Source: Minisyncoccota bacterium (GTDB taxonomy: Bacteria; Patescibacteriota; Minisyncoccia; Phycocordibacterales; JBAYGS01). From it: DNA of 64,000 bases. Numbering within the stretch: the stretch's first letter is position 1; each line of letters begins with the position of its first letter. The notes beneath the pieces were generated by a model. It did no database searches. It was not told the origin of the DNA and saw only the letters and a list, made by a program, of their open reading frames with translations. The position numbers were made by a program, and so were the translations under genes. The stretch spans positions 217,942-281,941 of the forward strand of contig JBAYGS010000001.1 of NCBI GenBank assembly GCA_041666545.1, read 5' to 3'. Shown piece by piece: positions 4,620 to 47,861 of the stretch.

Positions 4620-4841
4620 TCAATCCCCGACCGCGACAAGCTTGCTCGGGCTATGGTGCCCATTCACAATCCGGATTTGACCGGCTTTCGGCCCGAAATG
4701 TCGTCGCAAGAGCTCAATCACGCGAGTATTGGCCAGATTGCGCTCGGCCTTTTCCTTGACCTGTATCTTAAAACTCGTGTCCGAGACTTTTTCAAACAAC
4801 TCCTCGTCCGAATTGGTTTTGACTTTTACCTTGATGTACAT
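4620..4841 (-). CDS. DUF167 / YggU-family protein (73 aa)
   Basis: MYIKVKVKTNS...IRIVNG pattern; start taken at internal ATG 4841 (track uses GTG 4883, which would run into the MITE inverted repeat). Confidence 0.55.
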   Translation of the reverse strand: MYIKVKVKTNSDEELFEKVSDTSFKIQVKEKAERNLANTRVIELLRRHFGPKAGQIRIVNGHHSPSKLVAVGD

Positions 4842-5030
4842 CCCGTTAGAGATAGGAAGCGTGAAGTTGTGTACTTTTGACACCCCTATGTGAAATTAAC
4901 ATTAGATGAATAATACCCCACACCGACAAATTAACGAAACGCTTCCGAAGTCTGCGGAGCAAAACGAAAGACAATTTTTCACAGCAACTTGAGAAAATCT
5001 TTAAATTCGAAACAAAATATCTCTAACGGG
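4842..5030. mobile_element. MITE-like element copy 1 (189 bp) with terminal inverted repeats CCCGTTAGAGAT...ATCTCTAACGGG; flanks ACAT/ACAC
   Basis: Same 12-13-bp TIR as elements at 18517 and 29221; internal sub-terminal hairpin (GGAAGCGT...ACGCTTCC); non-coding; left TIR abuts yggU start codon. Confidence 0.6.
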
Positions 5031-5120
5031 ACACATCTCCCACTATCGAGGATTCGATATGTATTATATAGTATATGACAAAAGGTTGGCCTTTTCACTT
5101 AATTAGAAATTAAAAAAAAT

Positions 5121-5681
5121 ATGGAGACTAAATCAAAATTTGTCGCGACCATTCCGGAGCCAAAGTTGGCCAGACTTTTATTTGCCGACACCCGACTGGC
5201 CATGCTTTGGCTCGTTATCCGACTCTATGTTGGTTATGAATGGCTAATGGCCGGAATTTCAAAACTTAATTCTCCGGCTTGGTTAGGCGAACAGGCTGGC
5301 ACCGCCCTCAAAGGATTTCTGGCAGGAGCCCTACAAAAAACCGTAGGCGAGCACCCTGATGTTGCCGGCTGGTATGCGAGCTTCATTCAAAATTTCGTAC
5401 TGAATCACCCAATCGTTTTTTCCAATCTGGTAGTTTATGGCGAAATCGCGGTTGGTCTGGGATTGATTTTGGGTTTGTTTACCGGCATTGCCGCCTTCTT
5501 CGGCAGTTTTATGAACCTCAACTATCTTTTGGCTGGCACCGTGAGCACCAACCCTGTTCTGGGCATTTTGCAGTTATTTTTGATTCTAGCTTGGCGTATT
5601 GCCGGCTGGTACGGACTAGACCGTTTCGCTTTGCCAAAGCTTGGGACACCCTGGAAGCACGGCGAGATGTTTGAGAAGTAA
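5121..5681 (+). CDS. DoxX-family membrane protein
   Basis: Four predicted TM segments, DoxX-like spacing (LRLYVGYEWL..G..K). Confidence 0.6.
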   Translation: METKSKFVATIPEPKLARLLFADTRLAMLWLVIRLYVGYEWLMAGISKLNSPAWLGEQAGTALKGFLAGALQKTVGEHPDVAGWYASFIQNFVLNHPIVFSNLVVYGEIAVGLGLILGLFTGIAAFFGSFMNLNYLLAGTVSTNPVLGILQLFLILAWRIAGWYGLDRFALPKLGTPWKHGEMFEK

Positions 5682-5706
5682 ATTTTCGAAAAACTAGGGA
5701 TTAATG

Positions 5707-5734
5707 AAAACCACTAGCACCCGCTAGTGGTTTT
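5707..5734 (+). terminator. intrinsic terminator AAAACCACTAGC..GCTAGTGGTTTT
   Basis: 12-bp stem with flanking A/T tracts (bidirectional-capable). Confidence 0.65.
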
Positions 5735-5797
5735 CATTCTGACTTTTGCAACTCTCAAAAATTTTGCTATTATAAGCCAGCTCTTTGATTTATCACT

Positions 5798-6111
5798 ATG
5801 CCAGATAATAGAAAATACGCAGATCGTCGAGAAGCCTTGATTAAGGCCGTAGCAAAGCGTAGAAAAAAATTAAGCTGCTGGCTATTGAATACAAGGGCGG
5901 AAAATGCCAAGTTTGCGGTTATGAAAGGTATCCGGGAGCATTAGAACTTCATCATCTAGACAAGCGAGACAAAAGTTTCGCAATTGGTGATAAAGGGTAC
6001 ACAAGATCCTGGGAAAAAGTAAAAGCGGAACTAGATAAGTGTGCCTTGCTGTGTGCCAACTGTCACCGAGAAGTCGGAGCGGGCATAACGAAATTAGACA
6101 GCGCAGAGTAA
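5798..6111 (+). pseudogene. HNH endonuclease (~104 aa) interrupted by a -1 frameshift in an A7 tract (either a pseudogene or programmed/transcriptional slippage)
   Basis: Frame 1 ATG 5798..stop 5944 (MPDNRKYADRREALIKAVAKRRKK...); frame -1 continues from the A-run at ~5863 to 6111 with the HNH motif (CQVCGY..LELHHL...CALLCANCH). The frames join at AGAAAAAAATTAAG. Confidence 0.6.
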
Positions 6112-6143
6112 ATTGAAAACCGAATAATAAATGACAATTAAGC

Positions 6144-6425
6144 TCCGGGATAGCTCAGCGGTAGAGCAGTCGCCTGTAGAGTAATGCAGCTTTTTATCGA
6201 AAGGTAAATCGAAAACTTCGGGATAACGGTGGAACCCTACTATTTAAAAATTGAGGGCAATACCGTGGGAACCGAGCACATAAAGTTTATATGCTCGGGC
6301 GCCGTAGAGACTAGATACCGAGGCACCTAAATCCGCAAGGATATGGTGGTGATATAGTCCACGCCATCAGTAATGATGAATTAAGTGTAAGCGATTGGTC
6401 ACTGGTTCGAATCCAGTTCCCGGAG
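6144..6425 (+). tRNA. tRNA-Asn(GUU) interrupted by a group I intron between anticodon-loop positions 35/36; exons 6144-6177 and 6388-6425; no encoded CCA
   Basis: Acceptor stem TCCGGGA/TCCCGGA with U1-A72, G73 discriminator, D-arm GCTC/GAGC, anticodon stem GTCGC/GCGAT, T-arm ACTGG-TTCGAAT-CCAGT. Spliced loop is CUGUUAA (GUU anticodon). Confidence 0.75.
6178..6387 (+). ncRNA. group I self-splicing intron (~210 nt, small IC3-like) within tRNA-Asn
   Basis: 5' splice site after U with an IGS-like GCAG 8 nt into the intron (a CUGU/GCAG P1 with U.G at the splice site); terminal G6387. Core sequence CGCCGUAGAGACUAGAUACCGAGGCACCUAAAUCCGCAAGGAUAUGG resembles the P7/P3/P8 core of Azoarcus/cyanobacterial tRNA introns as I recall them. 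Confidence 0.7.
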
Positions 6426-6441
6426 CTTAGAGGTCATTTAG
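6411..6441 (+). repeat. direct repeat copy 1 = genuine tRNA 3' end (ATCCAGTTCCCGGAGCTTAGAGGTCATTT) followed by hairpin 6443-6466
   Basis: 30-nt block repeated at 6614 and 6818. Confidence 0.8.
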
Positions 6442-6613
6442 CAAACCGCCCGTCTTGGGCGGTTTTGCTTCATCTAAGGTCCGGGAAAGGACGCAAACTG
6501 CTTTGCGTCCGTCTGGATTCGAACGCCGGAGTTGTGTTTTTGTCAGCAGACAAAACCAACGAGGCGGTGCCCAGACAAGGCCGAGCGGCGGCGAGGTTTT
6601 AGTCGCGGGCGAA

Positions 6614-6677
6614 TCCAGTTCCCGGAGCTTAGAGGTCATTTGCAAAAACAGCGTTTCGGCGCTGTTTTTGTTTGACC
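6614..6677 (+). repeat. direct repeat copy 2 of tRNA 3' end + hairpin/T-tract (GCAAAAACAGCGTTTCGGCGCTGTTTTTG)
   Basis: 30-nt identity to 6411-6441; hairpin identical to copy 3. Confidence 0.8.
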
Positions 6678-6817
6678 TCGCTCCGAGGAAGCAAGTGAAC
6701 GATTTCACTTGCGGACTGGATTCGAAGCCCGATTGAGCATTTTTTCAAGCCACAGTGGCGCGGGAAAAATCCAATCGGGGTACTGAAACTGTAAGTTTCG
6801 AAAAACGTACCCGCGGT

Positions 6818-6880
6818 CCAGTTCCCGGAGCTTAGAGGTCATTTGCAAAAACAGCGTTTCGGCGCTGTTTTTGTTTAACC
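6818..6880 (+). repeat. direct repeat copy 3 of tRNA 3' end + same hairpin/T-tract
   Basis: CCAGTTCCCGGAGCTTAGAGGTCATTTGCAAAAACAGCGTTTCGGCGCTGTTTTTG identical to copy 2; degenerate extra copies (CTGGATTCGAA..CCGGAG) at ~6508 and ~6723. Confidence 0.8.
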
Positions 6881-6929
6881 CATTGTGATAGGCTGACCCT
6901 AGATAGAAGCCCGTCAACCCAGCAAAATT

Positions 6930-7199
6930 ATGAACCTTCACACCGCCGAAGTTTTTGTTAAAGATGTCCTTTTTGAAATGACGGGCTTCAGCGTCGCCCC
7001 TCATTTATGGGGATCAATTCCCCTTTCAGATATTGGCCTGACTCCCGAATCATGCCGAAACTTATCAGTCACGCTGGGTCTTAAACCTGAAGACCTGACT
7101 CCGGCCATGACCCTCGAGGAAACCGCGAAGAAGGTCGAGAAAGACAGTCCACTCGACATGAGGGTTGAAACGGAGCCGATGTGGGCACTTAATTTTTAG
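6930..7199 (+). CDS. hypothetical protein (89 aa)
   Basis: Track ORF followed by clear terminator at 7215-7247; no recognisable domain. Confidence 0.35.
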   Translation: MNLHTAEVFVKDVLFEMTGFSVAPHLWGSIPLSDIGLTPESCRNLSVTLGLKPEDLTPAMTLEETAKKVEKDSPLDMRVETEPMWALNF

Positions 7200-7214
7200 A
7201 GTTTGCCTCACCTA

Positions 7215-7247
7215 CCGACCACTTCATTTTGAAGCGTGGTCGGTTTT
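7215..7247 (+). terminator. intrinsic terminator CCGACCAC..GTGGTCGG + TTTT
   Basis: 8-bp stem, T-run 7244-7247. Confidence 0.65.
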
Positions 7248-7291
7248 AATTTACCAAAACCATTACGGTGCTTTGACACATTGCTATATTT

Positions 7292-18488: not shown

Positions 18489-18516
18489 AGTATACACATT
18501 TTCAGCCGTCTGTCAA
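18489..18516 (-). promoter_or_regulatory. candidate sigma-70 promoter (TTGACA-16-TATACT) for permease/ATPase genes; -35 sits at the MITE insertion junction
   Basis: Minus-strand read GGGGTTGACAGACGGCTGAAAATGTGTATACT. Confidence 0.45.
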
Positions 18517-18634
18517 CCCCGTTAGAGATAGGTCGTCGCAACGACGACCGTGGCCGTCACTGTTTCCAAACATTTTGTGTAAAAGCTAAGTTGGTTTCGT
18601 GATCGCTATTCCTAACAAAAAATCTCTAACGGGG
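18517..18634. mobile_element. MITE-like element copy 2 (118 bp), TIR CCCCGTTAGAGAT/ATCTCTAACGGGG, flanked by 4-bp direct repeat TCAA
   Basis: 13-bp perfect TIR; internal hairpin GGTCGTCGCAACGACGACC; ~85% identical to copy at 29221; lies between the binding-protein and permease genes of the ABC operon. Confidence 0.7.
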
Positions 18635-18668
18635 TCAAGACAAATAACGACACCGGTACGCGTTAGCG

Positions 18669-18690
18669 CACGACACCAATACACGAATAG
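18669..18690 (+). repeat. 21-nt motif CACGACACCAATACACGAATAG (copy 2) followed by ATTCGTG/CGAATA short repeats (to ~18745)
   Basis: Match to 1544-1564 and 50379-50399. Confidence 0.7.
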
Positions 18691-18740
18691 CTGAATTCGT
18701 GTGTGCGTATTCGTGGTCTCGCTATTCGCGTACTTTATTC

Positions 18741-18812
18741 GTATGCCCTATTTGTAAGGGTTCTTAACATAAAAACCCCTCGCCTGCCGTAGCAGATGAG
18801 GGGTTGGGCCGG
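18741..18812. repeat. degenerate copy of the palindromic repeat module (TTACAAATAGGGCATACGAATA, palindrome core deleted) + terminator hairpin for the binding-protein gene
   Basis: Shares flanks TAAGGGTTCTTAACA and CGAATA with copies at 22305, 25890 and 42040. Confidence 0.5.
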
Positions 18813-29181: not shown

Positions 29182-29208
29182 GGGCCGCGCGTTTCGCGCG
29201 GCCCTTTT
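29182..29208 (+). terminator. intrinsic terminator GGGCCGCGC-GTTTC-GCGCGGCCC + TTTT
   Basis: Read in sequence. Confidence 0.8.
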
Positions 29209-29220
29209 AAATTGATTTGA

Positions 29221-29339
29221 CCCCGTTAGAGATAGGTCGCCGCAACGACGACCGTAGCAGTTAAGGTGTCTCCGGTGTTCTAAACAAAAAGGAGTTTGGC
29301 TTTGTGACTGCCATTCTTAACAAAAAATCTCTAACGTGG
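29221..29339. mobile_element. MITE-like element copy 3 (119 bp), TIR CCCCGTTAGAGAT/ATCTCTAACGTGG, flanked by 4-bp direct repeat TTGA
   Basis: TIR, internal hairpin GGTCGCCGCAACGACGACC and sub-terminal TTCTTAACAAAAAA shared with copy 2; TTGACT immediately outside right TIR. Confidence 0.7.
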
Positions 29340-29416
29340 TTGACTTCCTACTTGAATATGATAATTATAGGTCAGAGTTCAAGCACAAAACCGAACTCGG
29401 AAAAGAAAGGAAAAGT

Positions 29417-29695
29417 ATGAAGAAGGAAGAGATCATTGACGCCATCAAAGTTAAAGGTGGCGAACTGCTCCAGAAGGTCAAAGACATCATCGCCAAAGGC
29501 AACGCCAGCAAAATCCGCATCAAGGGTGAAGACGGCAAGACCGTTGCCAGCTTCCCCATCAATGTCGGCCTCATCGCCACCATCGGCGCGCCTGTCTTCG
29601 TCGCCGTTGGCGCGATGGCCGCGGTCATCAACGACTGCACAATCGAGGTGGTTCGAAAGACGGACGATAGCGAGAAATCCAAGAAAAAAAAGTAG
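29417..29695 (+). CDS. hypothetical small protein (92 aa, hydrophobic central segment, Lys-rich tail)
   Basis: GAAAGGAAAAG RBS before ATG 29417 (track 29336); terminator follows. Confidence 0.5.
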   Translation: MKKEEIIDAIKVKGGELLQKVKDIIAKGNASKIRIKGEDGKTVASFPINVGLIATIGAPVFVAVGAMAAVINDCTIEVVRKTDDSEKSKKKK

Positions 29696-47177: not shown

Positions 47178-47861
47178 ATGAGGCATATCAAAACTGCAGT
47201 GGTGTTGATCGGTCGGAGCGGTTGTGGCAAGGGCAAGGGCGCAGAACCTCTTCGGCAAATGGGTATCTCGGTTCTGGAAACTGGAGCACTCTTCCGCGAG
47301 ATGAAACAGCAGGCCAAGCATAGTCCGTCCATCGACTGCATCGATTCCGGAATCTTGGTGGCCGACGAAACGGTCATGTGGCAAGTCAAACTTTGGCTCA
47401 CCGCGCACAAGGAAAAGATGATTGTGCTCGATGGCGCTATCCGGACAGAGCAACAGGCCAACACTATCGTCCAAGAACTGAAGAGTCGTGGCTATCAGCT
47501 GGCCACCTTTTGGTTCAACGCCTCGGAGCAGGCTTGTCGGAACAGAATCACCAAACGGGCTTCCGAAACCCAGGACGGCCGCGTCGACGACTCGACTGTC
47601 GAATCGATCGACCACAAACTGAAGGCCTTCGACCAGAAGACCTTGCCAATCAAGCCCTTCATGCAGAGTCCGCAGGTCAGCCACCAATTCGTGGAGGTTG
47701 CTGAGGATCTCGGCGTGCAAGAAGTCCAGAGCCTGATCATGCACAGCCTGGGACTGATCTCTAACGCCCGAATCACCTCAAGCAATCAGCCGGCAGTCTT
47801 CGTGGCGCCGGCGCTCGCTCGCCAGATCTTCAAGGATGAGCCACACCCGGTTGAGCCTTGA
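47178..47861 (+). CDS. adenylate kinase-like nucleoside-monophosphate kinase (P-loop)
   Basis: LIGRSGCGKGKGA P-loop, VLDGAIRT like ILDGFPRT; start ATG 47178 with AAAGAAAGG RBS (track 47013). Confidence 0.55.
   Translation: MRHIKTAVVLIGRSGCGKGKGAEPLRQMGISVLETGALFREMKQQAKHSPSIDCIDSGILVADETVMWQVKLWLTAHKEKMIVLDGAIRTEQQANTIVQELKSRGYQLATFWFNASEQACRNRITKRASETQDGRVDDSTVESIDHKLKAFDQKTLPIKPFMQSPQVSHQFVEVAEDLGVQEVQSLIMHSLGLISNARITSSNQPAVFVAPALARQIFKDEPHPVEP

Follow-up and report, generated by a model that had tools for sequence, protein, structure and literature searches.

REPINs consist of two inverted REP hairpins, are not known to make a target-site duplication and are spread by a single-copy RAYT transposase encoded elsewhere. 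Correia elements contain IHF sites and a promoter of their own, and their target duplication is TA. Ends starting with CC(C) and a 4–5-bp duplication are typical of piggyBac and IS1380, and piggyBac tips begin with CCC. The piggyBac transposon inserts at a 4-bp TTAA target; its two ends are unequal, with a 13-bp tip and a subterminal palindromic repeat to which the transposase binds (PMC5861402). IS1380 transposases serve as its prokaryotic outgroup (PMC10813416), and IS1247, a member of the IS1380 family, has 16/13-bp inverted repeats and a 5-bp direct repeat (PMC3281130). The inverted repeats of the IS1380 family are short, and its duplications measure 4–5 bp (PMC10813416, PMC3281130). Rickettsia palindromic elements (RPEs) are small (~100–150 bp) palindromic repeats that lie in frame in protein-coding genes and are translated as a conserved peptide (PMC10969869).

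The repeat family described here resembles the Correia elements of Neisseria, ERIC and RUP: all are 100–150 bp long, bounded by terminal inverted repeats (TIRs), non-coding and multi-copy, adjoin promoters and gene ends, and form a long stem when transcribed (PMC10969869). Unlike Correia elements, the family duplicates 4 bp (TNAA) and has no conserved interior, and in the window the native −35 box stays in use. Like REPINs, its members are non-autonomous, about 100 nt long, and have inverted repeats with hairpins; unlike REPINs, they show a clear 4-bp duplication and have a hairpin at one end only. No published description of the family was found, and the kind of element, a MITE, is well known. 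The TIR sequence gave one unrelated primer-like match in the literature, and a search for papers about MITEs of CPR and neighboring phyla turned up nothing relevant. These phyla, TTAA and IS1380 all go unmentioned in a review of prokaryotic MITEs from 2024.

The window, the whole 64,000-nucleotide stretch of DNA that was analyzed, is part of a 341-kb metagenomic contig (k141_82438, ENA ERZ27249449). Its sequence is also present in one JGI and one Logan assembly, with identical elements in identical orientation. The host is a CPR bacterium (Patescibacteria): identical permease and DoxX proteins are listed by NCBI under "Candidatus Paceibacterota bacterium", and all organism-named DoxX homologues are from Patescibacteria. 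The repeats in the window are very probably copies of a non-autonomous cut-and-paste DNA transposon, a MITE. Four copies lie in ~74 kb of the source genome, and the copies and their parts are as follows.

Positions 4841–5031 (191 bp): copy 1, a T-type variant (outermost base T/A) with a 165-nt divergent interior and without the subterminal hairpin.
Positions 4841–4853, plus strand: left TIR of copy 1, TCCCGTTAGAGAT.
Positions 5019–5031, minus strand: right TIR of copy 1, ATCTCTAACGGGA.
Positions 4837–4840 and 5032–5035: flanks of copy 1, TACA and CACA, an imperfect duplication with 3/4 bases matching.
Positions 18489–18516, minus strand: promoter of the permease operon beside copy 2, TTGACA-N16-TATACT, which starts at the duplicated TTGA and has 11/12 matches in a promoter scan.
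Positions 18517–18634 (118 bp): copy 2, a full-length profile match (E=1.7e-17).
Positions 18517–18529, plus strand: hairpin-end TIR of copy 2, CCCCGTTAGAGAT.
Positions 18531–18549, plus strand: subterminal hairpin of copy 2, GGTCGTCG-CAA-CGACGACC.
Positions 18622–18634, minus strand: second TIR of copy 2, ATCTCTAACGGGG.
Positions 18513–18516 and 18635–18638: target-site duplication of copy 2, TCAA (TTGA on the minus strand).
Positions 29221–29339 (119 bp): copy 3, a profile match (E=1.3e-15).
Positions 29221–29233, plus strand: hairpin-end TIR of copy 3, CCCCGTTAGAGAT.
Positions 29235–29253, plus strand: subterminal hairpin of copy 3, GGTCGCCG-CAA-CGACGACC, with 1 mismatched pair.
Positions 29327–29339, minus strand: second TIR of copy 3, ATCTCTAACGTGG, with 1 mismatch.
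Positions 29217–29220 and 29340–29343: target-site duplication of copy 3, TTGA.
Positions 29340–29368, plus strand: promoter-like site beside copy 3, TTGACT-N17-AATTAT, which starts from the duplicated TTGA and has 9/12 matches.
Positions 458–579 of locus L001, ~4.4 kb before the window start: copy 4, with TTGA/TTGA flanks.

The TIR is 13 bp long, (C/T)CCCGTTAGAGAT; copy 1 has T/A as the outermost pair, where copies 2 and 3 have C/G. The initial annotation had described 12–13-bp perfect TIRs with a sub-terminal GC hairpin. The repeats are perfect in copies 1 and 2 but not in copy 3, and the hairpin is seen in copies 2 and 3 but is missing from copy 1. The boundaries given there for copies 2 and 3 are unchanged, while copy 1 is one base longer on each side than the 4842–5030 first assigned to it. 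Direct repeats of 4 bp were correctly read at copies 2 (TCAA/TCAA) and 3 (TTGA/TTGA), as were the divergent 165-bp interior of copy 1 and the intergenic placement of all window copies. The elements had also been said to encode no transposase, and no transposase or recombinase domain is on record for any window gene.

In copy 1 the inverted repeat extends to a perfect 14 bp (TCCCGTTAGAGATA / TATCTCTAACGGGA), and the family profile gives weak matches, one at each end. Copies 2–4 carry the GC-rich hairpin at one end only, and the order inward from the repeat is AGG, hairpin, GT. The hairpin of copies 2 and 3 reads GGTCGYCG-CAA-CGACGACC. The exact 12-mer CCCGTTAGAGAT occurs five times in the window and once more with one mismatch, always in inverted pairs, at spacings of 92, 93 and 165 nt. 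Allowing up to two mismatches raises the number of matches to 11 versus 3.7 expected, and 0/100 shuffles get that far. Further window copies were not found in a profile search with a profile built from 73 family members.

The DoxX gene starts at 5121, 89 nt downstream of the right TIR of copy 1. Copy 2 is neighbored by an ABC transporter substrate-binding-protein gene and a permease gene, both on the minus strand. The neighbors of copy 3 are a strong terminator (29182–29204) and a DUF4342 gene that starts at 29418. Copy 4 lies between mreB and the next gene.

The family was scanned for with the 18-mer CCCGTTAGAGATAGGTCG (repeat plus hairpin start) against one genome per GTDB species, and at least 120 stretches matched. 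Nearly every match has an inverted partner ~105 nt away. The matches listed come from ~50 uncultured metagenome-assembled genomes (MAGs) with labels from at least 5 phyla. Among them are Planctomycetota, Omnitrophota, many Patescibacteria lineages, Elusimicrobiota and Ratteibacteria, and single-contig labels are Gemmatimonadota, Bacteroidetes, Rhizobium and Candidatus Multivorans. Mis-binning is possible for some short matching contigs. Some of the matches listed lie on contigs of 123, 150, 211 and 593 kb, and the breadth of host labels is therefore real. One MAG contributes up to 17 of the stretches listed, and some 8-kb stretches hold three or four copies. A scan of viral contigs gave one match, a short-form copy with the target-site duplication TCTG, and the conserved end had no blastn match in PLSDB plasmids.

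For family statistics, 100 distinct elements were extracted with their flanks. Interiors are 85–105 nt long in 73 of these elements, with a range of 23–248 nt. Left and right flanks were compared in every register, and a single register gives a signal: the four positions just outside the 13-bp repeats match in 75–82% of cases, versus 39–46% at positions farther out. The 4-bp duplication is perfect in 62/100 elements and has one mismatch in 17 more; flank composition predicts ~5% perfect (p ~1e-54). The commonest duplicated 4-mers are TAAA, TCAA, TTCA, TTGA and TGAA, and TTAG is also seen. The target is TNAA or its complement TTNA, with a position-by-position consensus of TTAA and a preference for a flanking purine before and pyrimidine after (R|TNNA|Y). 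Exact TTAA accounts for only 2 of the 62 perfect duplications. Tandem elements with one common duplication are frequent, so the junction of the element itself is similar to the target.

Copy 2 is absent from two loci (L130 and L131) whose permease is 88% identical and where the same promoter and leader lie upstream of the gene. Homology restarts exactly at TTGACA, from the window's duplicated TTGA. This empty site is one-sided, in that the relative does not align upstream of the insertion point. The exact empty-site sequence of copy 2 was not found in metagenome contigs. For copy 1, an empty site was sought via DoxX relatives, and the closest, at only ~70% identity, lack synteny.

An alignment of 73 elements limits conservation to the repeats and the AGG-hairpin-GT module, and the remaining 70–95 nt are unconserved. 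Near-identical interiors define subfamilies, both within single MAGs and between MAGs, as would be expected from bursts of transposition followed by drift. The window copies have little common interior sequence, in the hairpin region only, and are therefore old. Nothing indicates present-day mobility in the source genome.

The elements thus have the size (under ~300 bp), the TIRs, the fixed-length duplication, the multiple non-orthologous copies and, for copy 2 and on one side, the filled and empty sites of a MITE. The initial annotation had read them as MITE-like and had proposed inspection of empty sites in related genomes. Copy number, the duplications, the relative without copy 2 and the unconserved interior all support that reading. 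It had named conservation at orthologous positions with compensatory changes as the outcome that would speak for a structured RNA; the position is not conserved, and the interior has neither the conservation nor the covariation expected of such an RNA.

The proposed mechanism starts from an element of ~120 bp with 13-bp (C/T)CCCGTTAGAGAT ends, one of which continues into AGG, a 7–9-bp GC-rich hairpin and GT. The ~70–95 nt between the end modules drift freely. A transposase, presumably supplied in trans, would bind the ends and make cuts staggered by 4 nt at TNAA/TTNA targets (R|TNNA|Y), which would yield the 4-bp duplication. We infer the DDE-type mechanism, the identity of the enzyme and the reason for the one-sided hairpin. 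The target resembles gene punctuation, namely the stop codons TGA and TAA, the TGA(A) after the initial A of an ATG start, and the TTGA that opens a −35 box. The duplication restores the gene-proximal signal, so insertions do little harm and persist in compact genomes.

This course of events would account for the sites in the window. Copies 2, 3 and 4 sit directly upstream of an intact −35 hexamer, and in each the gene-proximal duplication forms the first four bases of that hexamer. The copy 2 promoter sequence is conserved in relatives without the element and is therefore native and intact after insertion. The promoter-like site at copy 4 is TTGACA-N16-GATAAT, with 11/12 matches. Copy 1 sits on the start codon of the DUF167 gene, with the terminal A of the repeat supplying the A of the ATG. 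The outermost base of its left TIR is the A of the DUF167/PF02594 ATG (minus strand, 4841–4839), and the gene start reads ATCTCTAACGGG-ATG on the minus strand. Gene callers are split on this start, at 87 versus 73 residues.

Similar sites recur across the family. Many elements lie 0–1 nt past a stop codon that falls inside the duplication. In 12 CPR elements with T/A ends, the neighboring gene has an ATG made up of the terminal A of the repeat and the duplicated TG. One Planctomycetota MAG (L109) has four elements in four pseudopilin genes of one cluster, inserted at GGN TTY ACC codons (G|FT, the prepilin cleavage site). These insertions are read as target resemblance rather than origin, as GGN TTY ACC fits R|TNNA|Y. 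An origin of the TIR in the sequence that encodes pilin N-termini was considered and rejected, with only 2/100 elements and the four of L109 at pilin genes.

In other genomes the element also lies inside genes and is translated in frame. Of 148 elements, 74 have a length that becomes divisible by 3 once 4 is added, versus an expected one third (p=2e-5). Fifteen elements lie inside continuous ORFs, and 13 of these use the same frame, PVRD(RSSQRDDR)...ISNGV. None of the window copies lies inside an ORF with an in-frame reading. Two of the three frames of the repeat are open and one contains TAG. At one locus (L030) this TAG terminates the host gene, and a solo repeat forms the end of another gene. 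One protein (L054) has a 42-residue segment, DPVRDRSSQRDDRK...CISNGV, that is the element in frame and is missing from two homologues. A profile of the in-frame peptide was compared with 5.8 billion proteins and gave 27 word candidates, none scoring, the conserved part being too short to inform.

The likeness to RPEs is one of behavior: 13 elements encode PVRD...ISNGV within ORFs, and whole codons are added by half of all elements. The differences are several. The hosts here are free-living or episymbiotic and belong to several phyla, whereas RPEs belong to one genus of intracellular bacteria. The present family has clear 13-bp TIRs and 4-bp target-site duplications, and most of its copies, including all in the window, are intergenic.

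An addition to the MITE explanation rather than a replacement is co-option, in which the mobile element acts on the adjacent gene. The hairpin, followed by UAUCUCU, could be a weak terminator or insulator, a 5′ stabilizer, or a stem that brings the ribosome-binding site from upstream close to the rebuilt start. The hairpin end faces gene starts in 38 cases versus 16, and the other end in 21 versus 30 (Fisher p=0.003). The hairpin end is gene-proximal in 10/12 start-codon insertions and in 6/6 pseudopilin insertions, and in copy 1, which has no hairpin, the AGG-bearing end adjoins the gene. This bias hints at selection on an effect on the neighboring gene, beyond simple tolerance. Genes with start-codon insertions are intact even though ~120 nt now separate their ATG from the former upstream region. 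However, copies 3 and 4 are oriented the opposite way, and no promoter or Shine-Dalgarno-like motif is conserved inside the element, where only GT is fixed after the hairpin. Co-option is possible but rather unlikely.

The hairpin itself was compared across elements. Stem pairs 1–5 (GGTCG/CGACC) are fixed, and their left arm belonged to the search pattern. Pairs 6–9 vary on both sides; position 6, for example, has 40 elements with T-A and 30 with C-G. At each of positions 6–9, paired elements outnumber those in all 1000 partner shuffles. The inner stem pairs thus covary, which recognition of double-stranded DNA by a protein would not need; some further constraint therefore acts on single-stranded DNA or RNA. 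The orientation bias and the stem covariation leave room for an effect on the neighboring gene or for recognition of a folded single strand.

The same hairpin could belong to a structured cis-regulatory RNA or a small RNA gene family, with the 13-bp closing stem and the hairpin functional and the segment not mobile. Predicted RNA folds are far more stable than those of shuffled sequence (z-scores of −3.9 to −6.4), but this stability is due to the inverted repeat itself. The covariation of the hairpin and its preference for the side of gene starts fit such an RNA, whereas the conservation or covariation expected of a structured RNA family is absent from the interior in the alignment. The elements also occur in both orientations at gene ends, starts and interiors, are flanked by target-site duplications, and in the case of copy 2 are missing at the orthologous site of a close relative. 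At the gathering threshold, Rfam had no match in the window or at the elements of four other loci, and permissive scans of two regions gave chance-level matches only. A structured RNA is very unlikely.

An inverton, in which a site-specific recombinase flips the segment between the repeats and so switches the downstream gene, is extremely improbable. The size of ~120–190 bp and the site directly upstream of genes fit, and the interior of copy 2 is opposite in orientation, relative to its gene, to those of copies 3 and 4. However, inversion makes no direct repeats, and variable 4-bp direct repeats flank the elements. The promoter, which relatives without the element have conserved, is located outside the repeats, and no recombinase domain is on record among called window genes. 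Copies 1 and 2 have the same orientation in three independent assemblies, a weak test as these are consensus assemblies, and the flipped junction of copy 2 was not found in metagenome contigs. The elements also lie in frame within genes, which an inverton does not fit.

Paired transcription-factor operators ~100 bp apart for DNA looping are hardly conceivable: identical inverted 13-mers do stand beside −35 boxes in three copies, but these 13-mers also turn up at stop codons, within coding regions and across unrelated phyla, carry variable 4-bp duplications and occur as tandem copies.

For a MITE, a mobilizing enzyme would be encoded elsewhere. The initial annotation expected a cognate IS in the genome and suggested a genome-wide TIR search. 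Searches with the element ends yielded copy 4 and the ~50 genomes, but neither the window nor 129 fetched loci yielded a parent that has these ends and bears a transposase. Degenerate TIR pairs 0.4–4 kb apart gave only neighboring small elements or noise. A search for ORFs flanked by inverted repeats found a single ORF between two TIRs, which encodes the GTPase Der and was set aside. Of four solo hairpin ends that were examined, one is 190 nt away from a truncated IS256/Mutator transposase fragment and another ~1 kb away from a tyrosine recombinase. Both were judged incidental because those families give other ends or duplications. A REPIN-type single-copy enzyme encoded elsewhere would explain the missing parent IS.

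A lead on the enzyme is architectural. The ends begin with CCCC or TCCC and are accompanied by a 4-bp duplication, as in piggyBac and IS1380. Like piggyBac, the family has unequal ends, a 13-bp tip from CCC, a palindrome 2–3 nt inward (here at one end only) and a 4-bp target with a TTAA consensus. Unlike in piggyBac, exact TTAA is rare and TNAA/TTNA dominates, so the family does not show TTAA-specificity, and the inner palindrome covaries rather than keeping its sequence. Neither a piggyBac nor an IS1380 transposase was found beside the family's ends, and the likeness is architectural only. A piggyBac/IS1380-like enzyme is thus a lead only as the candidate mobilizer.

A bolder reading, which we consider doubtful, is that the elements are the footprint of a transposition system undescribed in bacteria. 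The enzyme could be piggyBac-like, with a TTAA-like target, and spread across CPR, Omnitrophota, Planctomycetota and Elusimicrobiota, or it could be a single-copy host enzyme that reads the single-stranded DNA hairpin and has no autonomous parent. In either case the ends would have evolved to suit gene punctuation. Such a fit would comprise the two open frames with TAG in the third, and a terminal A or G that rebuilds ATG or GTG.

The end module of ~35 nt is almost invariant across labels of at least 5 phyla, including CPR bacteria with very small genomes. This points to recent transfer of the mobilizer between phyla or to a very broadly distributed enzyme. The host range is unusually wide and the fit to punctuation unusually exact. 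A substantial share of copies keep the frame and are translated in host proteins, which is the Rickettsia pattern in unrelated lineages. For annotation, gene callers disagree on starts beside the element, and the repeats could mislead assembly and binning. If the mobilizer is a bacterial relative of piggyBac with a relaxed TTAA target, it would be relevant to genome-engineering tools. The match of ends and target to gene punctuation offers a detailed case of a parasite that persists with almost no spare DNA. If the ends are indeed suited to punctuation, the most streamlined genomes would be open to colonization, and peptide segments or 5′ leaders would be added to host genes.

The elements include two structural subfamilies. 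Split-hairpin elements were found in CPR MAGs (loci L055, L078, L083, L098, L100, and L110) and carry the hairpin's two arms apart, one at each end, TCCCGTTAGAGAT-AGG-TCGCGGTC ... GACCGCGA-TCTCTAACGGGA; the entire interior therefore lies within the hairpin loop. Short-form elements, with a 36–50-nt interior, are made up of just two hairpins.

Further copies and repeats lie at these loci:

L061, 1976-2650, solo hairpin end, Brocadiaceae MAG
L109, 2950-6040, four degenerate element copies, Planctomycetota MAG CSMAG_1870 (DAOWBV010000001.1)
L030, 1240-1250 and 2934-2955, terminal repeats supplying the ends of host genes

The partner repeat of the L061 hairpin end is absent from 2.6 kb on its inner side. 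At 190 nt from this end lies the remainder of a transposase of the IS256/Mutator family (PF00872, E=3.5e-5), 156 residues from its C-terminus; it is the only transposase fragment observed beside any element end. It is probably a remnant of an unrelated IS that truncated the element. In L030, one host gene terminates at the TAG within the repeat's CCC CGT TAG, and a solo repeat holds the ...HPVRDI* end of a 429-residue membrane-protein gene on the opposite strand.

The L109 copies lie at four pseudopilin genes of a single cluster, each gene with a degenerate element at its G|FT prepilin-cleavage codons. The hairpin end adjoins the gene body in all four. Two elements are translated through in frame, giving a lengthened leader peptide, and an ATG inside the element begins the longest ORF in the other two.

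One protein family, which carries the C-terminal motif SHIDFxVVE...LxIQV and does not itself match Pfam or PHROGs significantly, is repeatedly encoded near elements, at distances of up to a few kb. It occurs in this setting in six tiles from Planctomycetota and in a single element-carrying viral contig. Its members are:

L009, 6946-7905
L057, 4605-5564
L054, 61-981
L124, 217-1227
L107, 247-1068
L021, 3-788
L129, 3700-5145

An element immediately precedes the start of two members and is inserted in frame within one. In the viral contig, the family protein is fused to a Laminin_G_3 domain.

Within the window, ATCTCTAACGCC (47757-47768) agrees with the repeat at 10/12 positions and lies in a kinase-like gene (47178-47861), where it is translated as ...LISNA.... 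The chance expectation for the window is about 0.1 exact 10-mer matches, and no partner repeat lies nearby. This match is either a chance occurrence or a very old relic.

Called genes are nearly absent from a 1.6-kb stretch of the window (5700-7290), which is unusual given the compact CPR genome. It holds a tandem array of three ~203-bp units (6412-7020), each terminating in a terminator-like hairpin, CAAAAACAGCG-TTTC-GGCGCTGTTTTTG. No tRNAs were detected in the entire window using ARAGORN, and the sole Rfam result was a sub-threshold tRNA-like match at 6144-6224 (19 bits vs a threshold of 29).

Directly past copy 2, the element between the substrate-binding-protein and permease genes of an ABC transporter, the substrate-binding-protein side (18640-18760) carries clustered ATTCG-containing motifs (TATTCG, ATTCGT, and the complement ACGAAT), including the palindrome CACGAAT-AGCTGA-ATTCGTG. 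This segment does not align to a relative without copy 2. One possible reading of the cluster is an array of operators serving the transporter operon.
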